Shown here: in pieces, positions 1,895 through 19,586 of the stretch
Numbering within the stretch: the first letter of the stretch is position 1
Layout of the letters: the number at the start of each line of letters is the position of its first letter
From: a phage
Length of the DNA: 64,000 nucleotides
Strand: one strand, 5' to 3'
Sequence record: PZ019085.1
Made by a program: the position numbers and the translations under genes
Notes under the pieces: model-generated
Seen by the model: only the letters and a program-made list of their open reading frames with translations
Databases searched by the model: none
Told to the model about the DNA's origin: nothing

Positions 1895-4606
1895 ATGAAA
1901 GAATTTTACTTAACGGTTGAACAGATTGGTGATTCAATTTTTGAACGTTACATCGATTCTAACGGCCGTGAACGTACTCGTGAAGTAGAATATAAACCAT
2001 CACTGTTTGCTCATTGTCCAGAAAGTCAGGCTACGAAATATTTCGATATCTACGGTAAGCCGTGTACTCGTAAGTTGTTCGCTAATATGCGTGATGCCTC
2101 CCAATGGATTAAACGCATGGAAGATATCGGACTTGAAGCACTTGGCATGGACGATTTCAAATTGGCGTATTTGTCTGACACTTATAACTATGAAATCAAA
2201 TACGACCATACAAAAATTCGTGTGGCCAACTTCGACATCGAAGTAACATCTCCTGACGGGTTCCCTGAGCCGTCACAAGCAAAACATCCGATTGATGCTA
2301 TCACCCATTATGACTCAATTGACGACAGGTTCTACGTATTTGATCTATTGAATTCTCCATATGGTAATGTGGAAGAATGGTCTATTGAAATCGCTGCTAA
2401 GCTTCAAGAACAAGGTGGTGATGAAGTTCCATCTGAAATTATCGATAAAATCATTTATATGCCATTCGATAATGAAAAAGAATTGTTGATGGAATATCTC
2501 AACTTCTGGCAACAGAAAACTCCTGTCATTTTGACTGGATGGAACGTTGAGTCATTTGATATTCCATATGTGTATAACCGAATCAAGAATATTTTTGGCG
2601 AATCTACTGCGAAACGTTTATCACCACATCGTAAAACTCGTGTTAAAGTTATCGAAAACATGTATGGTTCTCGTGAAATCATCACATTGTTTGGTATCTC
2701 TGTTCTTGATTATATTGACCTTTACAAAAAATTCTCTTTCACGAACCAACCGTCATATTCTCTGGATTACATTTCAGAATTTGAATTGAACGTTGGTAAA
2801 CTGAAATATGACGGCCCTATTTCTAAGCTTCGTGAAAGCAATCACCAACGATATATTTCTTATAACATCATCGACGTATATCGTGTATTGCAAATTGACG
2901 CTAAACGCCAGTTCATTAACTTGAGTTTGGACATGGGTTATTATGCTAAAATTCAGATTCAATCTGTGTTCAGTCCAATTAAAACTTGGGATGCTATTAT
3001 TTTTAATAGCCTTAAAGAACAAAACAAGGTGATTCCACAAGGTCGTTCTCACCCGGTTCAACCTTATCCTGGCGCTTTTGTTAAGGAACCTATTCCAAAT
3101 CGATACAAATATGTGATGAGCTTCGACCTCACATCTCTGTATCCAAGTATTATTCGCCAAGTGAATATTAGCCCAGAAACAATAGCAGGAACGTTTAAAG
3201 TAGCTCCATTGCATGATTATATTAACGCTGTTGCTGAACGTCCTTCTGATGTGTACAGTTGCTCTCCTAACGGCATGATGTATTATAAAGACCGTGATGG
3301 TGTAGTTCCAACTGAAATCACTAAAGTCTTTAATCAACGTAAAGAACATAAAGGTTATATGCTTGCAGCTCAACGTAATGGTGAAATAATTAAAGAGGCG
3401 TTGCATAATCCTAATCTTTCTGTTGATGAACCATTAGACGTTGATTATCGTTTTGACTTCACTGACGAGATTAAAGAAAAGATTAAAAAGTTGTCTGCTA
3501 AATCTCTTAATGAAATGTTGTTTAGAGCTCAACGTACTGAAGTTGCAGGTATGACTGCACAAATTAACCGTAAATTGCTTATCAACTCACTTTATGGTGC
3601 ACTTGGCAACGTTTGGTTCCGTTATTATGATTTACGTAATGCTACTGCAATCACAACATTCGGGCAAATGGCTTTACAGTGGATTGAACGTAAAGTTAAT
3701 GAATATCTGAATGAAGTTTGTGGTACAGAAGGCGAAGCTTTCGTTCTATATGGTGATACAGACTCCATTTACGTATCTGCTGATAAAATTATTGATAAGG
3801 TTGGTGAATCTAAATTCCGTGATACCAACCATTGGGTAGACTTCTTAGATAAGTTTGCACGTGAACGTATGGAACCAGCTATTGATAGAGGTTTCCGTGA
3901 AATGTGTGAATACATGAACAATAAACAACACTTAATGTTCATGGACCGAGAAGCTATCGCTGGACCTCCGCTTGGTTCTAAAGGTATTGGCGGATTTTGG
4001 ACAGGTAAGAAACGTTATGCATTAAACGTGTGGGATATGGAAGGAACCAGATACGCTGAACCTAAGCTTAAAATCATGGGTCTCGAAACACAGAAATCTT
4101 CGACCCCTAAAGCAGTACAGAAAGCTCTTAAAGAATGTATTCGTCGTATGCTTCAAGAAGGTGAAGAATCGTTACAAGAATATTTTAAAGAGTTTGAAAA
4201 AGAATTCCGTCAATTGAATTATATTAGCATCGCGTCGGTATCTTCTGCTAATAACATCGCTAAATATGATGTTGGTGGATTCCCTGGTCCTAAATGCCCG
4301 TTCCATATTCGTGGAATTCTAACGTATAACCGGGCTATCAAAGGTAATATCGATGCACCACAAGTTGTAGAAGGTGAAAAAGTATATGTTCTGCCTTTAC
4401 GTGAAGGAAACCCATTCGGTGATAAATGTATCGCATGGCCTTCTGGCACTGAAATCACAGATTTAATTAAAGACGACGTACTTCATTGGATGGACTACAC
4501 TGTTCTCCTTGAGAAGACATTTATTAAACCACTTGAAGGATTCACATCAGCAGCGAAACTCGATTACGAGAAGAAAGCATCTCTGTTCGATATGTTCGAT
4601 TTTTGA
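1895..4606 (+). CDS. 43: DNA polymerase gp43 (family B, 3'-5' exonuclease plus polymerase)
   Basis: 903 aa; exo motif FDIEV, polymerase motifs DLTSLYPSII and YGDTDS; sequence strongly resembles RB69 gp43 from memory. Confidence 0.97.
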   Translation: MKEFYLTVEQIGDSIFERYIDSNGRERTREVEYKPSLFAHCPESQATKYFDIYGKPCTRKLFANMRDASQWIKRMEDIGLEALGMDDFKLAYLSDTYNYEIKYDHTKIRVANFDIEVTSPDGFPEPSQAKHPIDAITHYDSIDDRFYVFDLLNSPYGNVEEWSIEIAAKLQEQGGDEVPSEIIDKIIYMPFDNEKELLMEYLNFWQQKTPVILTGWNVESFDIPYVYNRIKNIFGESTAKRLSPHRKTRVKVIENMYGSREIITLFGISVLDYIDLYKKFSFTNQPSYSLDYISEFELNVGKLKYDGPISKLRESNHQRYISYNIIDVYRVLQIDAKRQFINLSLDMGYYAKIQIQSVFSPIKTWDAIIFNSLKEQNKVIPQGRSHPVQPYPGAFVKEPIPNRYKYVMSFDLTSLYPSIIRQVNISPETIAGTFKVAPLHDYINAVAERPSDVYSCSPNGMMYYKDRDGVVPTEITKVFNQRKEHKGYMLAAQRNGEIIKEALHNPNLSVDEPLDVDYRFDFTDEIKEKIKKLSAKSLNEMLFRAQRTEVAGMTAQINRKLLINSLYGALGNVWFRYYDLRNATAITTFGQMALQWIERKVNEYLNEVCGTEGEAFVLYGDTDSIYVSADKIIDKVGESKFRDTNHWVDFLDKFARERMEPAIDRGFREMCEYMNNKQHLMFMDREAIAGPPLGSKGIGGFWTGKKRYALNVWDMEGTRYAEPKLKIMGLETQKSSTPKAVQKALKECIRRMLQEGEESLQEYFKEFEKEFRQLNYISIASVSSANNIAKYDVGGFPGPKCPFHIRGILTYNRAIKGNIDAPQVVEGEKVYVLPLREGNPFGDKCIAWPSGTEITDLIKDDVLHWMDYTVLLEKTFIKPLEGFTSAAKLDYEKKASLFDMFDF

Positions 4607-4646: not shown

Positions 4647-5282
4647 ATGAAAACTACACCAATCACTATCGCTATTGACGCAATCGTAAAACAAGCTTCA
4701 TCTCTTGCCACTATGGCTAAAGTAATTAGTCAAAACCCTGCCCGATATAATGCTATTCTTGAAACTCTTCGTCGCCCTGGACTGAGTAATTATGAAAGCC
4801 GAGTAATTATTACAGGTGTTGGTAAGAATGCTAATATTGCAACTAAAGCTTCTGAGACATTTGCTTCATTAGGTATTCCTAGCATGTATTTGAACACTGG
4901 GCATTATTCTCATGGTGACGCAGGATTTATTGCACCTAATGATGTATTAGTTCACATCAGTCGTTCTGGTAAGACTGAAGAAATGATAGGTGTTGCTAAA
5001 CATCTTCGTATGATTCGTCCTCAGGTTAAACAGATTCTGTTACATTGTAACCCTGACATTCCACAAGAATACGAAGCTCTTTTTGATTATACGTTCTGTA
5101 CCGGTATCGCGGTAGAAGTTGACGAGAACTCTTTAGCTCCGACGATGTCTACTACATTGTTGTTAGCGCTTATCGATACGTTCGCTATCAACCTTTCATC
5201 TGAACGTGGATTTACCTCTAATGATTTCCTTAAGTTCCATCCAGGCGGTGCACTAGGTGCCATGTTACGAGGCGAGCAATGA
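4647..5282 (+). CDS. SIS-domain sugar-phosphate isomerase (arabinose-5-phosphate isomerase / KdsD-GutQ-like, single SIS domain, no CBS)
   Basis: 211 aa; motif VIITGVGKNANIATKASETFASLGIPSMYL...HGDAGFIAPNDVLVHISRSGKTEE typical of SIS isomerases; no T4 counterpart at this position. Confidence 0.7.
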   Translation: MKTTPITIAIDAIVKQASSLATMAKVISQNPARYNAILETLRRPGLSNYESRVIITGVGKNANIATKASETFASLGIPSMYLNTGHYSHGDAGFIAPNDVLVHISRSGKTEEMIGVAKHLRMIRPQVKQILLHCNPDIPQEYEALFDYTFCTGIAVEVDENSLAPTMSTTLLLALIDTFAINLSSERGFTSNDFLKFHPGGALGAMLRGEQ

Positions 5283-5422
5283 AAGCAATAACAATAGGAC
5301 TTTTACTATTGATGCTTGTCATGACTATCTATTGGAGCTTAACGGCTCCAGTAATGATTCCAACACTTGTAATTGGATGGATTATGATTGGACTACAAGC
5401 AAAGTATGAATGCTTTAACTAG
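5279..5422 (+). CDS. Small hydrophobic membrane peptide (47 aa)
   Basis: ATG overlaps the preceding stop (ATGA); MKAITIGLLLLMLVMTIYWSLTAPVMIPTLVIGWIMIGLQ; below the ORF-track length cutoff. Confidence 0.4.
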   Translation: MKAITIGLLLLMLVMTIYWSLTAPVMIPTLVIGWIMIGLQAKYECFN

Positions 5423-5435
5423 AATAGTGTACAAT
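5411..5435 (+). promoter_or_regulatory. MotA-box middle promoter (TGCTTTA, 12-bp spacer, TACAAT) upstream of the nucleotidyltransferase/kinase gene
   Basis: MotA box TGCTTTA at 5411-5417 and -10 TACAAT at 5430-5435; spacing fits T4 middle promoters. Confidence 0.45.
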
Positions 5436-5463
5436 ACTCCTACTTACCAATGAGGACCACAAC

Positions 5464-7149
5464 ATGAAAAAAGCTGTTATTCTTGGTGCTGGACTGGCAA
5501 CTCGTTTGTATCCAATAACGCATCATATTCCTAAGGTGCTTGTTAACTATAAACAAGACACTATTCTGAGCAATTTGTATACAATTTATTCTGACCTTGG
5601 CGCAGATGAAATTATTGTAGTAGTTCATTCAAAATTTGCTGAAACTGTTCGAGCTTATTGTGAGCAAGAAGGGTTCAATGTGACTATTCGTACAGTTGAT
5701 GAAGCATACGGATCTGCTTATGCTCTTGCTAAATTACACAAAGATTTAGACGGCCATAATGTAATTGTTAACTGGTGCGATATTATTCCTGATTTTGGTT
5801 CATGGTCTTGGAATGTTAACGCAATCTATGTTAAGGGTGACGAATGTCGGTATAATTTCGACGGTGAAAATATCACTAACGTAGGTTCAACAGGTGGTAA
5901 TGTTGTAGGAATTTATCAGTTCAAAGACTGGGAATTCTATATGGGTTCTACCGATGAGGAAATTCATGAATACTGCAAAGGACGTGATTTCGTAGAATTC
6001 CTTTACAGCGGCGCATTCAATAAATCAGAGCTTATGAATATAATTGATTTAGGTGATATGCCTAAACTTGAAAAAGCTCATGAAGTTCGTGAACTTAATC
6101 GTAGTTTTAATGCAGTTGAAATTGGTGAAGAAACTGTAACTAAATTCGCATTAACCGAACAGGGCCGAGCTCTTCAGAAAGATGAGATTTCATGGTATCT
6201 TAAAGTGAAATCAGATTCAGTTCCTCAGTTAGTTTCTGTTAATGAAAATAACTTTGAAATGGAACGCATTAAAGGTAAGCCGGCATTTGAATATATTAAA
6301 TCCAAATCAAGTCTTGCTCGTCCACAAATTGTTGATGCAATTTTAGATGCACTGAAATTCAGCACAGACACTTATTTTGTAAGTCCTGAAACTGTTCGTC
6401 GTGATTTCACTAAAGAATTCTATACGAAAGTTATTGATCGTTGTGAAAGTATTCAACCATTGATTGATTCATTTGGTAAAATCACACATGTGAACTACAC
6501 TAAGATTGGACGTCTGAAGCCAATGCTGAAACAAGCTTTAGAACACCTTATTCGTTATCATAACCGTTCTCAGGGACAGTACTCTGTTATTCATGGTGAC
6601 CCTAACTTCAGTAATACTATGATTACTGATAACGGCGAAGTCAAGTTTATCGACCCTCGTGGATATTTTGGTGAAACCAAGATTTACGGGCCAAAATTGT
6701 ATGACGAAGCTAAAGTGCTTTATGCTGTTTCAGGTTATGATGAATTCAATGCTAATCCGACCTGGGGACAGTTTACTATTGATGAAACAACTTGTAATGT
6801 GACTATTAACATCAATCCATTAATTTACAAATATGGAAAGATGAGTTCGTTTAACGAGTATCATCATTTGGCGGTGGCAATTATCTGGATTGCATTGGGT
6901 GGTTATTTCAAGAATAATCCACTTAAAGCGGTAGCCGCATATTATAAAGGTATGGAACTTCTGACTAAGCAATTACGTAACATGGGCCGTGTACTTCAGG
7001 ACGGCTCTATTAGTTATGACGTAGCAGAACCTGTAACGGCTACTCTGATTACAAAAAATCCTGGTAAATGGGTACTAACTGATAAAGAAACTGGTGTTTC
7101 TTATCGTCCAATCGGTGGCGATATCACTCATCAATGGGAACGAATCTAA
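5464..7149 (+). CDS. Bifunctional sugar-1-phosphate nucleotidyltransferase (N-terminal) / APH-choline-kinase-fold kinase (C-terminal)
   Basis: N-terminus MKKAVILGAGLATRLYPIT is the RmlA/LicC-type G-x-G-x-R-L signature; C-terminus has Brenner motif HGDPNFSN and IDPRG (APH/NahK/LicA-like); 561 aa. Confidence 0.75.
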   Translation: MKKAVILGAGLATRLYPITHHIPKVLVNYKQDTILSNLYTIYSDLGADEIIVVVHSKFAETVRAYCEQEGFNVTIRTVDEAYGSAYALAKLHKDLDGHNVIVNWCDIIPDFGSWSWNVNAIYVKGDECRYNFDGENITNVGSTGGNVVGIYQFKDWEFYMGSTDEEIHEYCKGRDFVEFLYSGAFNKSELMNIIDLGDMPKLEKAHEVRELNRSFNAVEIGEETVTKFALTEQGRALQKDEISWYLKVKSDSVPQLVSVNENNFEMERIKGKPAFEYIKSKSSLARPQIVDAILDALKFSTDTYFVSPETVRRDFTKEFYTKVIDRCESIQPLIDSFGKITHVNYTKIGRLKPMLKQALEHLIRYHNRSQGQYSVIHGDPNFSNTMITDNGEVKFIDPRGYFGETKIYGPKLYDEAKVLYAVSGYDEFNANPTWGQFTIDETTCNVTININPLIYKYGKMSSFNEYHHLAVAIIWIALGGYFKNNPLKAVAAYYKGMELLTKQLRNMGRVLQDGSISYDVAEPVTATLITKNPGKWVLTDKETGVSYRPIGGDITHQWERI

Positions 7150-7535
7150 TGCATCGTGTAGAAAACATGCTTAATCTTTGTTTTGATGTCGACGATTGTA
7201 TAACAGAGTGGAATAACAATCGTGATTACGTGAACTTCAAGCCAGACGTCGAAATGGTGTCTGCCATTAATGCCCTGTATGATGCAGGGCATACCATAAC
7301 GCTTTACACTGCTCGTGGTATGAAGTCAGTAGGTCCTGGTCGTATAGCAATTGACATTCTCCCAAGTCTGATTCAGAACTTGGCAAACATTGGCTTGAAG
7401 TACCATAATTTGCTAACACATAAACCAGTATATGATTGGATTATCGACGACAAAGCTATGCGTCCCGACGAATTCAAAGCTCTTATGAATAAAGGCGAAT
7501 TCGAAACATTTAAATCATATAAACCGAATCTATAA
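7149..7535 (+). CDS. Small HAD-superfamily phosphatase-like protein
   Basis: Motif I FDVDDCIT near the N-terminus, motif IV IIDDK; start taken at the ATG overlapping the upstream stop (TAATG); track ORF starts at 7134. Confidence 0.5.
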   Translation: MHRVENMLNLCFDVDDCITEWNNNRDYVNFKPDVEMVSAINALYDAGHTITLYTARGMKSVGPGRIAIDILPSLIQNLANIGLKYHNLLTHKPVYDWIIDDKAMRPDEFKALMNKGEFETFKSYKPNL

Positions 7536-7589
7536 TAATTTAAGTAAGACCTGCAAAAACCATCGCATAAATTAACGCGAGATGCAAAA

Positions 7590-8750
7590 ATGAATACTTT
7601 TAAAATCGGAACGAATTTTGATTTAGCTCTTCTTGATAAAATCGTAGAGCTCAATAAAACTTATCCTAATAGCTTGATAAACGAAGTATACGGCTCTACA
7701 AGAGAAATGGCTTTTGTAGCAGCCAGACCTGATTTTAGGCTTCCTGACGTTGACAAAAAGATGTTAGAAGATTACGTTAAACGTTGTAATGAATTAGGTA
7801 TTTGCTTTAACTATACACTCAACACGATAAATCCCGGTTCAAAAAGAGAACTAGTTGAGTGGAAGAAGAAAGCTATTCAGGATTATGTTCAGTATCTTTG
7901 GTCAATAGGCGTATGGCGTATTACTATCGCTAACCCTGTTGTTATGGAAATTGTTCGTGAAGTCAATAAAGACATTGAGATTGAAGTTTCAACAATTCTA
8001 CATGTCGATGCTGTAACTCAAATCAAATACTTACATGACCAATACAATATCAAAAAGGTCTGCTGTGGAATTCATAAGAACCGTTCAGTTTCTTTCCTGA
8101 AGCGTGCAGCAGAGTTTTGCAATAAGAACAATATAATATTTGAAGTTCTTGTAAATGAGTTCTGTTCTAATGCTGGTAAAGGGTATACAACACATTGTAG
8201 CTATCGTGACTCTTGCTATATTTTCCATAGTACTGATGTTACAGCTGATGATGCTAAATCCTTAAACGGGTATCCAATGCAACACTGCATTAAAGCTCGT
8301 GATACAGACCCATTTAACTGGTTGAGAACTCGTTTTGTTCGTCCTCAAGATTTGAAACTTTATAATGATATTGGTATCACTCAATTCAAAGTTTCAGGAC
8401 GTACAGGTAGCACAGACTACATTTTGAAAGTTCTTGAAGCATACGCTTCTGAAAAGTTTGAAGGTAATTTGTTAGAACTGTGGAAGCCTTTAGAGACTAT
8501 TTTCACTCTTGAAAACGAAACTGAGTTTTCACATACAGTAAATATTGAAACCTCTTTGTTAGATGGCTTTTTAGAAAAAAGGTGGTTCAGGCATCCAGAT
8601 TTCGATTGTGCTAATGAAATCTGTGGGACGACGTGTACATATTGTGAAAGATATTATAAACGTCAGTTATCTAAAAACGGGTTAGCAGAAAACTCTATAT
8701 CTATTATTGATATAACTAACTCTGATGACGCTTTGAGGTACCCAGAATGA
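7590..8750 (+). CDS. Cys-rich enzyme, possibly peptidase-U32-family / Fe-S TIM-barrel-like; function unknown
   Basis: 386 aa; segments GICFNYTLNTIN and EIEVSTILHV resemble U32-family strands as I remember them; C-terminal Cys cluster C-x4-C-x3-C-x2-C (CANEICGTTCTYC). Confidence 0.3.
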   Translation: MNTFKIGTNFDLALLDKIVELNKTYPNSLINEVYGSTREMAFVAARPDFRLPDVDKKMLEDYVKRCNELGICFNYTLNTINPGSKRELVEWKKKAIQDYVQYLWSIGVWRITIANPVVMEIVREVNKDIEIEVSTILHVDAVTQIKYLHDQYNIKKVCCGIHKNRSVSFLKRAAEFCNKNNIIFEVLVNEFCSNAGKGYTTHCSYRDSCYIFHSTDVTADDAKSLNGYPMQHCIKARDTDPFNWLRTRFVRPQDLKLYNDIGITQFKVSGRTGSTDYILKVLEAYASEKFEGNLLELWKPLETIFTLENETEFSHTVNIETSLLDGFLEKRWFRHPDFDCANEICGTTCTYCERYYKRQLSKNGLAENSISIIDITNSDDALRYPE

Positions 8751-8829
8751 TTTCTAGAAAAACTTTTAACCACCAACTTAATGAAGAGATTTTGACTATG
8801 AAACTGAACACTAACGAACAAATTCTTAA

Positions 8830-8850
8830 AAAGGCCCTTATGGGGGCCTG
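8830..8850 (+). other. GC-rich stem-loop (AGGCCC-loop-GGGCCT) in the 280-nt non-coding gap before gene 42
   Basis: Inverted repeat seen directly; no U-tract follows, so terminator function is uncertain. Confidence 0.3.
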
Positions 8851-9030
8851 TTTGAAACCAAAGCGGCTAAAGTGATTAAAGAACCTGTTCAATTGGAATA
8901 CTACGCTGATGCATTTCTTCATAGTGTTCTTGGAAGTATCGATGCTGAAGCTTTACGGTATATCAACACTGCCAAGAAATTCAAATAAGCTTTACGAATC
9001 GAGTATATAATAAATTGTATTGAGGTAAAC

Positions 9031-9747
9031 ATGGGAAAACATAACACAATGAAATATATCAAAGCCGCAGATTTTCAAACCGCATTTAAAGCAGTCAATC
9101 GTGAAATTTTAGAAAACCCGGAATTCGTAACTGATTCTCGTATTGGACGTTGTAATGAAATTGGGTCTATGACAGTAGTTGTTGACACTCCATCGTCATT
9201 CAAAATGACCGACCCACGTATTAACCGCATCTCTTATGAATATGCCGAAGACTTCTGGAAGTTTATGATTTCTGGTGGTACTGATGCAGAAGAAGCGTTT
9301 AAGGCATATCCTAATGTCGCTAAATTTATTTCTAAACCAAAATCGGATGCTTTGCCTGCAAACTTCAACACTTTCTATGGTCCTCGCATTGCGGCCCAAT
9401 TACCAACTCTTCTAAAAGAACTTAAAGAGAAACCTAACTCTCGAAGAGTTGTGTTCCAAATTCTAGAAAGTTCAGATCAGGCTTTGCTTGATTCGGACGA
9501 AACACTTGAATATCCATGTACTGACTCAGTGACTTATTATATTCGTGATGGTAAGCTTTATACCCACTGTCATATGCGTTCTCAGAACTGTGCTGTTGTT
9601 ATGCAGTTGGATTTTTATCTCCAAGGAAAATTACTTCATTATATCGCTAACGAATGCGGTGTAGAAGTAGGTGATTATACTCATACCATGGTAAGTGCCC
9701 ATGTGTTTGAACGTGATTTTGATTATGTTAAAGGATTCCTTGACTAA
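9031..9747 (+). CDS. 42: dCMP hydroxymethylase gp42 (thymidylate-synthase fold)
   Basis: 238 aa; NSRRVVFQIL and CTDSVTYYIRDGKLYTHCHMRSQN align with T4 gp42 DSRRGIMIYT and CTNTVQYLIRDKKINAVVNMRSND from memory. Confidence 0.85.
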   Translation: MGKHNTMKYIKAADFQTAFKAVNREILENPEFVTDSRIGRCNEIGSMTVVVDTPSSFKMTDPRINRISYEYAEDFWKFMISGGTDAEEAFKAYPNVAKFISKPKSDALPANFNTFYGPRIAAQLPTLLKELKEKPNSRRVVFQILESSDQALLDSDETLEYPCTDSVTYYIRDGKLYTHCHMRSQNCAVVMQLDFYLQGKLLHYIANECGVEVGDYTHTMVSAHVFERDFDYVKGFLD

Positions 9748-10646
9748 TGGCTATTTTCCGCGTACCTATCTTGAGTATGCGGTCTTATGAAACTGGTCAG
9801 TATGCTATCCTTAAGGATGGCAACTTCCAACTTCATTTGCACCGTGCTAATCCAGGCGATGTGATTACATATCCACGTAATGCATCTGATATTAAAGAAT
9901 GTGAACGTCTTTTCCCGGAATTTAAGTTTGTTCCATTATGGTATAAAGATAACGCGTATAACACTCGTAAATATTTCTGGTCTGAAAATGAATTTGTGGT
10001 TGATTCATTAATTGCTTATTATGATTGTGATTTTCTAATCACAGATATCACTGGATATGATGGCGCTTTTGACGTAGAATTCAATTTCAATATCACTGCA
10101 GACCCTAATAAACCACGTTTTTATATTGATGAATTCTTAAAAACCGACATGTTGTCTGTTAATCGTTCACTTCAAACTACTGTGTTGAATGAACGTCAAA
10201 AAGAAGTGCTGGTTAACGCAGGTGCAGATGGTAATAAGATTATCGTAACGCAGAAAGTTATACGTCCTTCCGTCATGCAGCGTCTTGTAGGTGATTTGGC
10301 TCCTATTCATCTAGATGGTATTTTTCATCCATTTCGAATTAGTGACCCATGCTATCGTTTTGAACAAGTTGTTGAATGCGCAATTCAATTAGGTCAACCG
10401 CTTTATATAACTGATCCAAATAATAGTTTCGACAGAAATAAGTATCCTGAAGAAGCGCTGATTCGAATTTTTAATCCAACTAAAACTGAGTACTATCAAA
10501 TTCTTAAAGGACGTCCGAAGATTCAATATTTCGAAAATCCTGAAGAAGTATTCCATCCAGGTCTTGGTGAGTTCATCTACTTTAATGCTTTAATTTCTTC
10601 ACCGTATAATATACCTAAATACGAAGATGTCGTAATCGAGGAATAA
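9747..10646 (+). CDS. Hypothetical protein occupying the T4 beta-glucosyltransferase slot (no recognisable beta-gt similarity)
   Basis: 299 aa; sits between 42 and uvsX where T4 has beta-gt; sequence does not resemble T4 beta-gt as I recall it. Confidence 0.5.
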   Translation: MAIFRVPILSMRSYETGQYAILKDGNFQLHLHRANPGDVITYPRNASDIKECERLFPEFKFVPLWYKDNAYNTRKYFWSENEFVVDSLIAYYDCDFLITDITGYDGAFDVEFNFNITADPNKPRFYIDEFLKTDMLSVNRSLQTTVLNERQKEVLVNAGADGNKIIVTQKVIRPSVMQRLVGDLAPIHLDGIFHPFRISDPCYRFEQVVECAIQLGQPLYITDPNNSFDRNKYPEEALIRIFNPTKTEYYQILKGRPKIQYFENPEEVFHPGLGEFIYFNALISSPYNIPKYEDVVIEE

Positions 10647-10647
10647 A

Positions 10648-11196
10648 ATGGCTAAAATTATTTTAGTAGACGGCCCGGATAATGCTGGTAAAACAACTTT
10701 CATTAATGACATAATGGAAATTAGTGAAAGATATGTAAAGATTGATTTCCCTAAACGAACAGTTGATGGACGTTTCGATGTTAAGTCTCGAAATGAAGTT
10801 GGCTGTTTCGAAACGATGTTGAATTATTTAGACCCTACTAAGATTTATCTGTTAGACCGTGGATATATTAGTAACTGGGTTTATGGACGTATTCGACAAG
10901 ATGTGGACTCGGTTCTTGACGTTTATGAACAGGATTATGTTCGTCTTTGCCAAAACCATGATGTGTTCACAATTATTTTAACACGTAACGAAATGACTGA
11001 AAGTTTTGAAGACGACCTTATTACTTTGTCTTCATTCGGTTTTAATACAGTCATTTCATATTTTGAAGAGTTTGCAATTCATAACAAAATCCAAACGTAT
11101 CAATTACTTAATCATGATGGTGCTAACAAAGTTATAGGATTTAATGCAAGCGAACGTAATTATTTGATTACAGAAATCATTAAATGGGCTCGTTAA
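10648..11196 (+). CDS. P-loop nucleoside/nucleotide kinase-like protein
   Basis: 182 aa; Walker A GPDNAGKTT at the N-terminus and an LDRG motif reminiscent of dNK/TMPK-type kinases. Confidence 0.5.
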   Translation: MAKIILVDGPDNAGKTTFINDIMEISERYVKIDFPKRTVDGRFDVKSRNEVGCFETMLNYLDPTKIYLLDRGYISNWVYGRIRQDVDSVLDVYEQDYVRLCQNHDVFTIILTRNEMTESFEDDLITLSSFGFNTVISYFEEFAIHNKIQTYQLLNHDGANKVIGFNASERNYLITEIIKWAR

Positions 11197-11214
11197 GAGC
11201 CATTTAAAGTTTTA

Positions 11215-11241
11215 AATGCTGTATAACCCTTAGTATATAAT
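11215..11241 (+). promoter_or_regulatory. MotA-box middle promoter upstream of uvsX (TGCTGTA, 12 bp, TATAAT)
   Basis: MotA-like box at 11217-11223 and -10 TATAAT at 11236-11241. Confidence 0.4.
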
Positions 11242-11294
11242 CATCTTATCCTTTAAACATGAGTAAAATATAATGATGCCTATGGAAAAATACA

Positions 11295-12467
11295 ATGTCT
11301 GATTTAAAATCTCGTCTGATTAAAGCTTCTACTTCTAAAATGACTGCAGACTTGACTAAGTCTAAGCTGTTTAATAATCGTGATGAAGTCCCTACTCGTA
11401 TTCCGATGTTGAATATTGCATTAGGTGGTGCACTGAATGCAGGGTTGCAATCAGGCTTAACTATTTTTGCTGCTCCTTCTAAACACTTTAAAACGTTGTT
11501 TGGACTAACTATGGTTGCAGCATATATGAAGAAATATAAAGATGCAATTTGTTTGTTCTATGATTCAGAATTTGGTGCTTCAGAATCTTATTTTCGTTCA
11601 ATGGGTGTTGATTTAGACCGTGTAGTTCATACTCCGATTCAATCTGTCGAACAACTTAAAGTTGATATGACTAATCAGCTTGACGCGATTGAACGCGGTG
11701 ATAAAGTTATTATCTTTATCGATTCAATCGGTAATACTGCATCTAAGAAAGAAACCGAAGATGCGTTGAACGAGAAAGTTGTAGGTGATATGTCTCGTGC
11801 TAAGGCACTTAAATCTCTTTTCCGTATTGTGACCCCGTATCTGACTATTAAAGATATCCCGTGTGTTGCAATCAACCATACAGCAATGGAAATCGGCGGA
11901 CTATATCCTAAAGAGATTATGGGTGGTGGTACAGGTATTCTTTACTCTGCTAACACCGTATTCTTTATCTCTAAACGTCAGGTTAAAGAAGGTACAGAAT
12001 TAACCGGTTATGACTTCACGTTGAAAGCAGAAAAATCTCGTACAGTTAAAGAGAAATCTACTTTCCCGATCACGGTTAATTTTGATGGCGGTATTGACCC
12101 ATTCAGTGGCTTGTTAGAAATGGCAACTGAAATCGGTTTTGTGGTTAAGCCTAAAGCTGGTTGGTATGCTCGTGAATTCCTTGACGAAGAAACAGGTGAA
12201 ATGATTCGTGAAGAAAAATCATGGCGTGCTAAAGCTACTGATTGTGTAGAATTCTGGGGACCATTGTTTAAACACAAACCTTTCCGAGATGCAATTGAAA
12301 CTAAATATAAACTAGGTGCTATCTCTTCTATTAAAGAAGTTGATGACGCTGTTAATGACCTTATTAATTGCAAAGCAACAACTAAAGTTCCGGTTAAAAC
12401 TTCTGATGCTCCATCCGCAGCAGATATAGAAAACGACCTTGACGAAATGGAAGATTTCGATGAATAA
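11295..12467 (+). CDS. uvsX: Recombinase UvsX (RecA/Rad51 family)
   Basis: 390 aa; colinear with T4 UvsX (MSDLKSRLIKASTSK..., acidic C-terminus). Confidence 0.95.
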   Translation: MSDLKSRLIKASTSKMTADLTKSKLFNNRDEVPTRIPMLNIALGGALNAGLQSGLTIFAAPSKHFKTLFGLTMVAAYMKKYKDAICLFYDSEFGASESYFRSMGVDLDRVVHTPIQSVEQLKVDMTNQLDAIERGDKVIIFIDSIGNTASKKETEDALNEKVVGDMSRAKALKSLFRIVTPYLTIKDIPCVAINHTAMEIGGLYPKEIMGGGTGILYSANTVFFISKRQVKEGTELTGYDFTLKAEKSRTVKEKSTFPITVNFDGGIDPFSGLLEMATEIGFVVKPKAGWYAREFLDEETGEMIREEKSWRAKATDCVEFWGPLFKHKPFRDAIETKYKLGAISSIKEVDDAVNDLINCKATTKVPVKTSDAPSAADIENDLDEMEDFDE

Positions 12468-12801
12468 TCTCGATGATTTAAATCTAGAAATCGTTGATGA
12501 ATCCCCTTCTTCGGAAGGGGAAGACATTCGCAAAGAACGAGTGTTTAATGAATCTCTTAAAATTATCCGTTCAGCAATGGAAAATGTCATTCAAGAGATT
12601 CTGATTACGCTTGAAGATGGTTCTCATCATATAGTCTATATTACAAAACTAGACTGGGTTGATGGTAAAATCGTAATGGACTTTGCAGTTCTTGACCAGG
12701 ACAGAAAAGCAGAACTTGCACCACATGTTGAAAAATGTGTTACAATGCAAGTACAACAAGCTTTTAATGAACGGACCAAGAAAAAATTTAAATTCTTTTA
12801 A
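12460..12801 (+). CDS. 40: gp40 (head vertex assembly chaperone)
   Basis: Position between uvsX and 41; first ATG at 12460 (track ORF uses an upstream TTG at 12439). Confidence 0.6.
   Translation: MNNLDDLNLEIVDESPSSEGEDIRKERVFNESLKIIRSAMENVIQEILITLEDGSHHIVYITKLDWVDGKIVMDFAVLDQDRKAELAPHVEKCVTMQVQQAFNERTKKKFKFF
12503..12520 (+). other. Stable intragenic hairpin CCCCTTC-UUCG-GAAGGGG inside the 5' end of gene 40
   Basis: Perfect 7-bp GC-rich stem with UUCG tetraloop, about 40 nt after the uvsX stop; no U-tract. Confidence 0.4.
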
Positions 12802-18974: not shown

Positions 18975-19064
18975 AATATCTCCTTAGTTACCTTATTATT
19001 TATTACGCTTTATAAAATTAATGTTAGAATTATCTCTCTTACTACTGAATTGAAAGGAAAAATT

Positions 19065-19586
19065 ATGGCGCACTTTAACGAATGTTCACAACTTATTTCT
19101 GGTGTTGATAAAGCAGAAGAAGCTTATTTTAATGCTCTGATTCATGAAGATAAAGACCCACTGCAGGTAATGCTTGATATGCAGAAATCTTTACAGGTTC
19201 GTCTGGCAAATGACAAGCCTGAATATAACAAACATCCTGATGAATTGGCTACCGCCGGTGATGTTGTTGATTGGCTGCGTAATCAGAAAGATTATATTGA
19301 TGATGAATTCCGTGAACTGCTGACTTCACTTGGCGGTATGAGCAATGGTGAAAAAGCCGCTAGCTCTGTATGGAAGCCGTGGAAAGCACAACATGCTGAA
19401 TATCGTAATCGTCGTATCGATGAACTGTCTCCTGAAGACCAGCTTGAAATTAAATTCGAGATGATTGATATCCTCCACTTTGTTCTGAATATGTTCCAAG
19501 GCCTTGGACTTACTGCTGAAGAAATCTTTAAACTGTATTACCTGAAAAATGCTGAAAACTTCGCACGTCAAGACCGAGGTTACTAA
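19065..19586 (+). CDS. 56: dCTP pyrophosphatase gp56 (MazG-like)
   Basis: MAHFNECSQLISGVDKAEE... matches the T4 gp56 N-terminus; track ORF starts at an upstream TTG. Confidence 0.85.
   Translation: MAHFNECSQLISGVDKAEEAYFNALIHEDKDPLQVMLDMQKSLQVRLANDKPEYNKHPDELATAGDVVDWLRNQKDYIDDEFRELLTSLGGMSNGEKAASSVWKPWKAQHAEYRNRRIDELSPEDQLEIKFEMIDILHFVLNMFQGLGLTAEEIFKLYYLKNAENFARQDRGY

Follow-up and report, generated by a model that had tools for sequence, protein, structure and literature searches.

A U32-family gene in the 5-hydroxycytosine locus of an RB69-like phage as a candidate oxygen-independent hydroxylase of a DNA precursor

Introduction

Hydroxylation without molecular oxygen has been ascribed to several bacterial members of the U32 protein family. 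UbiU and UbiV hydroxylate ubiquinone precursors independently of O2, taking the oxygen from prephenate; they work as a heterodimer on a lipid quinone with the carrier UbiT and provide an anaerobic alternative to flavin monooxygenases. TrhP (YegQ) forms 5-hydroxyuridine at position 34 of tRNA (ho5U34) in a prephenate-dependent, O2-independent manner. It is paired with the O2-dependent TrhO; the U32 route is needed by anaerobes and both routes suit facultative organisms, while TrhO is absent from obligate anaerobes. RlhA (YdcP) is responsible for 5-hydroxycytidine at C2501 of Escherichia coli 23S rRNA, and its proposed cytosine C5 hydroxylation is prephenate- and iron-dependent and O2-independent. 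Here a U32-family gene (Table 1) is described from a 64,000-nucleotide stretch of phage DNA (PZ019085.1), hereafter the window, in which it lies within a DNA-modification cluster like that of phage RB69. Its product is proposed to be an iron-sulfur (Fe-S) U32 enzyme that hydroxylates deoxycytidine monophosphate (dCMP), or a close cytosine deoxynucleotide, to 5-hydroxy-dCMP (5hodCMP) without O2 and with prephenate as donor, a reading to which we give somewhat better than an even chance.

In RB69 DNA cytosine alone is replaced, by mono- and di-arabosylated 5-hydroxycytosine (5hoC) and not by arabinosyl-5-hydroxymethylcytosine (arabinosyl-hmC) (Lee et al., NAR 2026; PMC13326640), so that the hmC pathway assumed in an earlier note on the window does not apply. 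The 5hodCMP is made by a thymidylate-synthase homolog, gp48, which binds flavin loosely, requires that flavin to be reduced and takes up 18O from O2; gp48 and a kinase alone yield 5hodC in E. coli, and an isomerase, a kinase/pyrophosphorylase and a phosphatase are sufficient for production of UDP-arabinofuranose (PMC13326640).

Membership of the gene in the U32 family is already known, the Pfam assignment of RB69ORF050c dating from 2006. The RB69 gene, RB69p050, appears as "Sugar or heterocycle reductase", with a structural match to 5d88, in Table 1 only of the RB69 study, the main text being silent (PMC13326640). The BASEL annotation is "UDP-arabinose biosynthesis enzyme", most GenBank records label the gene as a peptidase, and the Thanatos paper models TH1_065 without discussion. 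A literature search of accessible papers found none tying phage chorismate mutase, U32 or prephenate to 5hoC, and a transposon-mutagenesis preprint naming Bas46 and LC53 holds no gene-level essentiality data for either.

U32 Family Membership and Fold

The earlier note described a Cys-rich protein of 386 aa with a resemblance to U32 enzymes, suggested by TLNT/ST-type segments; the Cys content holds, and the U32 resemblance is borne out by profiles and fold. The open reading frame (ORF) encodes 13 Cys (3.4%; positions 66, 72, 158, 159, 177, 192, 203, 209, 233, 340, 345, 349, and 352), and its product is 99.5% identical to RB69p050. The annotated start of the latter (L098 1492-2661) lies 9 nt upstream of the start used in the window and in Shigella phage JK45, giving 389 rather than 386 aa. 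A Pfam search returned PF01136 at 42.2 bits, against a gathering cutoff of 22.4, and 117 of the 120 listed homologs carry the same domain; phrog_5757 ("peptidase") covers the full length of the protein (E = 5e-267). In comparisons with orthologs from other phage genera dN/dS, the ratio of nonsynonymous to synonymous substitution rates, is 0.03-0.07, with synonymous sites near saturation, and the gene is under strong purifying selection. An exhaustive hidden Markov model (HMM) search found 492 representatives of the subfamily at E<=1e-30 and 1,156 at E<=1e-10, a size of about 500-1,100 clusters at 50% identity. With 18.5 bits against the NCBIfam UbiU equivalog NF047963 (curated cutoff 440), the phage protein is not a UbiU ortholog. 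In PADLOC no model was matched by the phage U32 protein or by a U32 protein from Phocaeicola.

An AlphaFold2 model built from a 97-sequence alignment (pLDDT 93.6, pTM 0.92) has the TIM-barrel-like fold of the U32 family. The best structural match is PDB 5d88 (Mk0906), the only solved U32 structure, a 247-aa protein without assigned function that is 14% identical to the phage protein and leaves its C-terminal Cys-bearing extension uncovered; sequence and profile searches of PDB sequences gave no meaningful match, and 5d88 was recovered by fold comparison only. Alignment by hhalign in local mode to a profile of four E. coli U32 domains (TrhP, RlhA, UbiU, and UbiV) gave 96.5% probability and E = 1e-9 over 283 columns. 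The homology spans phage aa 10-329, beyond the Pfam match, and TrhP is the best profile match. After the Cys region, phage K267-V-S-G270-R271-T272 aligns with the KIEGR of TrhP, RlhA, and UbiU, with K267, G270, R271, and T272 invariant in the 97 sequences.

The family name and the database annotations would make the protein a true collagenase-type peptidase. This is scarcely credible, given that the characterized U32 members cited here (UbiU/V, TrhP, and RlhA) are hydroxylases and not proteases, that the gene context is one of nucleotide and DNA modification throughout, and that a peptidase would leave the conserved putative metal sites described below unexplained.

Conserved Cysteine Sites

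Nine Cys (C158, C192, C203, C209, C233, C340, C345, C349, and C352) show no variation among 121 homologs with identities as low as about 48%. In a second set of 128 more divergent subfamily members C192 is found in 126 and C233 in all 128, and the C-terminal four are kept in 107-113 of the approximately 113-115 sequences that reach that region; the invariance of the nine and the counts in divergent members show that the pattern is not due to chance. C158 (72/128) and C177 (20/128) lie outside the core set. The C203/C209 pair is kept, moved by two residues, or altered to His at C209. A subgroup (e.g., P0136, P0164, P0170, P0187, and P0194) has the motif C-x3-4-C-P-x-R-x2-H-Y, with His at the C209 position, and may represent a Cys3His cluster variant.

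The subfamily would thus have two conserved four-ligand putative metal sites, a central one with partial homology to the site of the U32 cluster and a C-terminal one that is subfamily-specific. In UbiU and UbiV a [4Fe-4S] cluster needed for activity has been shown experimentally on four Cys of each subunit, non-canonical spacings being tolerated, and the motif CX6CX15CX3/4C is common to most U32 subfamilies. Phage C203 and C209 (CX5C) align with the first two [4Fe-4S] ligands, C170 and C177 of TrhP, as well as with the CX6C pair of RlhA. An insertion peculiar to the family, modelled as a beta-hairpin (E194-196/E199-201), contains C192 and sets it opposite C203. The central site, C192/C203/C209/C233, is taken as the putative canonical U32 [4Fe-4S] cluster, whereas the earlier note had considered the C-terminal motif for a 4Fe-4S site. 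The latter does exist with the spacing that the note reported, C-x4-C-x3-C-x2-C (DC340ANEIC345GTTC349TYC352), and is modelled at pLDDT ~95. By analogy with UbiU-UbiV, in which there are two clusters, one on each subunit, this motif may form a second cluster that serves in electron transfer; the phage enzyme may hold both on one chain. RlhA, although it shares the Pfam family and the proposed chemistry, differs in several respects: it has 653 aa, a single rRNA nucleotide as substrate, the canonical CX6CX15CX3C motif and another C-terminal region, in contrast to the 386 aa, the CX10CX5CX23C and C-terminal CX4CX3CX2C motifs and the predicted free-deoxynucleotide substrate of the phage protein.

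The C345-x3-C349-x2-C352 spacing could also recall a radical S-adenosylmethionine (SAM) enzyme using the C-terminal CX3CX2C, as the earlier note hinted, and radical SAM/SPASM genes lie near two divergent homologs. A radical-SAM-like enzyme is nevertheless extremely improbable: a profile check gave no PF04055 match at E<=10, the motif is C-terminal to the barrel, a fourth Cys (C340) is invariant, and the top structural matches include no radical-SAM enzyme.

Prephenate-Forming Enzymes Beside the U32 Gene

In Enterobacter phage Entb_45 a 79-aa gene, overlapping its neighbor by 4 nt on each side, lies between the U32 and synthase genes and encodes a chorismate mutase (Pfam CM_2, 40.9 bits vs. a cutoff of 27). 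The product of chorismate mutase is prephenate. By tblastn the gene is present in 51 phage records, every time between U32 and the synthase, with Klebsiella, Serratia (including LC53 and 92A1), Yersinia, Enterobacter, Edwardsiella, Erwinia, Pectobacterium, Kosakonia, Morganella, Providencia, Shewanella, and E. coli (EcS1) as hosts. In most related genera the 79-aa mutase occupies the interval that holds the gp49-like gene in the window. Aligned with the chorismate mutase (CM) domains of E. coli PheA and TyrA, all of the phage mutases keep R11, R28, K39, S84, and Q88, and those of T4-like phages also keep E52; these six we take to be the key residues of the E. coli enzyme (EcCM). Among 30 viral contigs with the synthase, 15 with and 15 without U32, the mutase occurs in 13/15 of the former and 0/15 of the latter (Fisher p = 1.8e-6, shared ancestry ignored).

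A different arrangement is found in a divergent set of 33 viral loci whose U32 proteins are 40-55% identical to that of the window (35 loci with L005 and L006), the context of which was viewed for 8-10 kb on each side. [quoted passage not shown] In five loci the DAHP synthase is fused to CM_2 (PF00793, 125 bits; PF01817, 65 bits), and in one further contig U32 is followed by DAHP synthase. Two structurally distinct prephenate sources have been recruited next to the U32 subfamily in unrelated phage lineages. Phage genomes with shikimate-pathway entry enzymes are unusual in themselves.

Distribution and Host Oxygen Lifestyle

The U32 gene is present in 222 phage records, the visible hosts of which are all Enterobacterales or Shewanella. 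The 5hodCMP synthase homolog is more widespread, with 378 phage records that include 57 Acinetobacter and 22 Rhizobium phages. Acinetobacter phage Apostate has a phosphatase gene abutting the synthase and neither U32 nor chorismate mutase, and Acinetobacter-type viral contigs likewise have the synthase without either gene. Among 100,044 species genomes scanned, the U32 subfamily turned up in eight assemblies only (Erysipelotrichales, Lachnospiraceae, two of Romboutsia, a Bacillota metagenome-assembled genome (MAG), Tannerella, Phocaeicola faecalis, and BRC1). The lineages concerned are obligately anaerobic. The gene is missing from phages of strict aerobes with the same pathway, and present without the synthase in contigs tied to obligate anaerobes.

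This distribution bears on the possibility that U32 is not a hydroxylase but an Fe-S partner, such as a flavin reductase, that passes electrons to the 5hodCMP synthase. Such a partner would account for the position of U32 two genes upstream of the synthase, with the gp49-like gene (or this gene and chorismate mutase) between them, for two putative redox clusters, and for the need of the synthase to have its loosely bound flavin reduced. It is distinctly unlikely, however, since gp48 and the kinase suffice in E. coli, since Acinetobacter, Rhizobium, and Dhakavirus phages use the synthase without U32, and since approximately 37 divergent loci have U32 and no synthase nearby. Nor would a simple reductase explain why chorismate mutase tracks U32.

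U32 Loci Without a Nearby Synthase

Within 8 kb of U32 the 33 divergent viral loci contain no thymidylate-synthase homolog, save for one weak match (L027). Homologs of arabinosyltransferase 1 adjoin U32 in divergent phages (tblastn), and the other recurrent neighbors (Table 1) are those of nucleotide and sugar metabolism. In L005 and L101 a dCMP deaminase gene overlaps the U32 gene that follows it, and in L102 U32 is followed by a TAGT-like DNA glycosyltransferase, with UDP-galactopyranose mutase; none of the three has PF00303 nearby. These loci look like pyrimidine hypermodification clusters in which U32 stands in place of the enzyme that modifies the deoxynucleoside monophosphate (dNMP).

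Location among sugar genes, co-occurrence with SIS and AfhE-like genes in 9-16 divergent loci, and the published annotation guess might all be taken to mean that U32 modifies arabinose or its nucleotide carrier. We consider this very unlikely. The route from ribulose 5-phosphate through arabinose 5-phosphate, arabinose 1,5-bisphosphate, and arabinose 1-phosphate to UDP-arabinofuranose is complete without U32, and Acinetobacter phages make mono- to tri-arabosylated 5hoC without it; conversely, U32 occurs with nucleotide enzymes and no sugar genes nearby in L005, L101, and the cellular cassettes described below. Sugar-acting U32 members are not known, and the linkage to chorismate mutase would be left unexplained.

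A small but appreciable chance attaches to a U32 hydroxylase with another substrate or level of action, be it cytosine in DNA, dCTP or dCDP, dUMP, or host RNA in manipulating translation. The known U32 pyrimidine hydroxylases act on polynucleotides, and in several divergent loci U32 comes after dCMP deaminase, the product of which is dUMP. Action on dCMP fits better with a gene that lies inside, and is translationally linked to, a DNA-modification cluster, and with recurrent neighbors that are mononucleotide enzymes (dCMP deaminase, Tmk-like and guanylate-kinase-like kinases, NT5C, and deoxynucleoside kinase). Phage hypermodification usually places the reactive group at the dNMP level, and the replacement of cytosine alone in RB69 DNA also argues for a cytosine substrate.

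Proposed Function

The phage dCTP pyrophosphatase (dCTPase) destroys dCTP, and replication depends on a modified dCTP. In the proposed pathway U32 would hydroxylate dCMP at C5 with prephenate, as proposed for UbiU/V, TrhP, and RlhA; kinase steps would then yield 5hodCTP, which would be incorporated and arabinosylated on its 5-hydroxyl. U32 would act as the anaerobic counterpart of the 5hodCMP synthase two genes downstream (RB69 gp48, DLP3 gp80, and the HY126 enzyme), with the same proposed product and pathway. The synthase differs in its unrelated fold, in its dependence on flavin and O2 (18O2 labelling), and in its presence in strict-aerobe phages without U32. Because dCTPase removes dCTP and the synthase needs O2, infection of a host in the anoxic gut would require an O2-independent source of 5hodCTP. 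The idea in the earlier note of a U32 Fe-S pyrimidine C5 hydroxylase is supported, and sharpened, as regards family, fold, and the link to hydroxylation; its pathway and choice of cluster are replaced.

T4-like phages offer a precedent in NrdAB and NrdDG, one dependent on O2 and the other independent of it, which serve a single essential step in the supply of DNA precursors, though with other chemistry and other protein families. The T4 hydroxymethylase has no O2 requirement. The TrhP/TrhO pair likewise combines a prephenate-dependent U32 route and an O2-dependent route to one C5-hydroxypyrimidine, but its substrate is a tRNA uridine, its O2-dependent partner is a rhodanese rather than a thymidylate-synthase homolog, and it is cellular rather than viral. 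What is proposed as new here is a branch of the U32 O2-independent hydroxylases that is viral and directed at deoxynucleotides. For the subfamily as a whole, the chances seem evenly balanced that it provides the first enzyme known to hydroxylate a DNA precursor without O2 and also the first U32 hydroxylase from a virus, a backup in T4-like phages and the sole 5-hydroxypyrimidine route in phages of obligate anaerobes, with the donor raised by phage chorismate mutase or the DAHP synthase-CM fusion.

Several points weigh against this proposal. U32 proteins have so far shown no hydroxylase activity in vitro. The canonical third and fourth Cys (C193/C197 in TrhP) have no aligned counterpart in the phage protein, and C192 and C233 are candidates for the remaining ligands assigned by conservation alone. 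The mutase association, as stated, ignores shared ancestry, and the Mosigvirus lineage, including the window, is without chorismate mutase, so that host prephenate would be required there. Dhakaviruses, which infect E. coli, have the synthase and sugar genes and lack both U32 and chorismate mutase; the association is accordingly one-way and the backup not obligatory, and DNA modification in Dhakaviruses may be O2-dependent. None of the divergent U32 contigs was matched by the 5hodCMP-synthase scan, a weak negative given its clade-specific patterns, and a distant synthase is possible. The assignment of divergent contigs to anaerobes comes from eight assembly labels, some perhaps of binned phage. 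Finally, the co-occurrence of U32 with SIS and AfhE-like genes in distant phages fits a sugar-directed role too.

If the proposal is correct, the newly described 5-hydroxycytosine DNA pathway, whose only known hydroxylase needs O2, would gain the anoxic route that it lacks, and prephenate-dependent U32 hydroxylation, so far a matter of RNA and quinones, would reach DNA precursors and viruses. The proposal would also give a reason why phages have genes for chorismate mutase and DAHP synthase. Anaerobic microbiomes would be predicted to hide a large set of phage genomes modified with 5-hydroxypyrimidines, with a bearing on restriction and CRISPR evasion and on gut phage therapy. Up to now U32 hydroxylases, acting as they do on lipids or large RNAs, have for that reason resisted reconstitution in vitro (PMC10990095); a soluble substrate, dCMP, would give the field the in vitro assay that it is missing and make the mechanism directly testable.

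Organization of the 5-Hydroxycytosine Locus

Many RB69-like Escherichia phages (genus Mosigvirus) match the region 5400-12500 of the window at 98-99% identity; the features of the window are collected in Table 1 with those of other U32 loci. Known sequencing errors interrupt RB69 genes 46/47 and 52/53, whose counterparts in the window are single ORFs.

Table 1. Features of the window and of other U32 loci. Positions refer to the window unless a locus (L number) is named; counts refer to the 35 divergent loci.
Feature	Position or loci	Strand	Basis or remark
DNA polymerase	1895-4606
SIS-domain arabinose-5-phosphate isomerase, RB69 gp55 ortholog	4647..5282	+	PMC13326640
Bifunctional nucleotidyltransferase/kinase, AfhE-like, RB69 gp52:53 ortholog	5464..7149	+	PMC13326640
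HAD-like phosphatase, AfhF-like, RB69 gp51 ortholog	7134..7535	+	Synteny with RB69p051, PMC13326640; without Pfam match
U32-family gene, RB69p050 ortholog	7590..8750	+	ATG-started ORF, 386 aa
Pfam PF01136 Peptidase_U32 match	7869..8447	+	aa 94-286
Central Cys site C192-x10-C203-x5-C209-x23-C233 (putative)	8163..8288	+	Codon coordinates, conservation
C-terminal Cys motif C340-x4-C345-x3-C349-x2-C352	8607..8645	+	Codon coordinates, conservation
Small gp49-like gene, RB69ORF049c homolog	8747..8988	+	Start overlaps U32 stop (ATGA)
Thymidylate-synthase homolog, flavin/O2-dependent 5hodCMP synthase, RB69 gp48 ortholog	9031..9747	+	Pfam Thymidylat_synt; 99.6% identity; PMC13326640
DNA arabinosyltransferase 1, RB69 gp46:47 ortholog	9747..10646	+	PMC13326640
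Thymidylate-kinase-like nucleotide kinase, RB69 gp45 ortholog	10648..11196	+	Weak Pfam match; PMC13326640 Table 1
UvsX	11295-12467
dCTP pyrophosphatase (dCTPase)	19050..19586 (also 19065-19583)	+	94% identical to annotated dhabil dCTPase
Tmk-like kinase in U32 slot	L010 8468-9004		Escherichia phage dhabil
DAHP synthase-CM fusion beside U32	L040 6321-7376; also L037, L038, L041, L051
DAHP synthase only, beside U32	L025, L100
Glycosyltransferases beside U32	23/35 loci		Several homologous to RB69 5hoC arabinosyltransferase
AfhE-like nucleotidyltransferase/kinase beside U32	16/35 loci
SIS isomerase beside U32	9/35 loci
Tmk-like kinase beside U32	7/35 loci
dCMP deaminase beside U32	6/35 loci
dUTPase beside U32	6/35 loci
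MazG-like pyrophosphatase beside U32	4/35 loci
Four-gene U32 cassette	L065 3044-7137; L063 4929-9086; L006 7135-11098 (= L060)		Phocaeicola faecalis, BRC1 MAG, Bacillota MAG

The gp49-like gene is intact (240 nt, 79 aa) in RB69, JK45, and F27. In the window a 2-base insertion relative to F27 (G5 rather than G3, at 8842-8846) divides it into ORFs 8747-8875 and 8872-8988, and the split stems either from an error in sequencing or assembly or from an inactivation peculiar to the strain. The gp49-like gene was considered as a diverged chorismate mutase and rejected, with BLASTP E = 7, no Pfam match, and four loci carrying both genes.

Shigella phage JK45 (L099, MK962757.1) is filed as a Tequatrovirus, yet it has a complete Mosigvirus-type 5hoC cluster and a U32 protein 100% identical to that of the window. 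Its taxonomic label looks inconsistent with its gene content.

Other U32 Loci

In L102 (11098-16179) U32 occurs with the TAGT-like DNA glycosyltransferase, a dUTPase/DCD gene, and UDP-galactopyranose mutase, a sugar enzyme that the 5hoC phage RL38J1 also has, a hint of galactofuranosylated hydroxypyrimidine DNA. L005, a 466-kb megaphage-like contig, has at 944-11086 genes for a MazG/dUTPase-like protein, a radical SAM/SPASM protein, a 402-aa protein, Tmk, a UDG-like protein, PolIII alpha, and the dCMP deaminase that overlaps U32. Together with L101 it suggests a pathway for hydroxylated uracil or cytosine, with no sugar genes nearby.

Three cellular loci (Phocaeicola faecalis and the BRC1 and Bacillota MAGs) contain a conserved four-gene cassette ending in U32, preceded by GP88 (PF17338), a fusion of guanylate-kinase-like and methyltransferase domains, and a protein of approximately 270 aa. 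PADLOC found no defence-system match for the cassette, bar a weak match to the methyltransferase. Nucleotide hydroxylation followed by O-methylation is a speculative role for it. Downstream of the cassette in L006 (11116-17428; also in L007 and L060) is a deoxynucleoside/nucleotide gene island comprising an NT5C nucleotidase, a PnuC-type transporter, a deoxynucleoside kinase, an AlaX-like protein, a radical SAM/SPASM protein, a second, more distant U32-like protein (377 aa), and a nucleoside 2-deoxyribosyltransferase. The pair of U32-like genes in L006 is reminiscent of the UbiU/UbiV pair.

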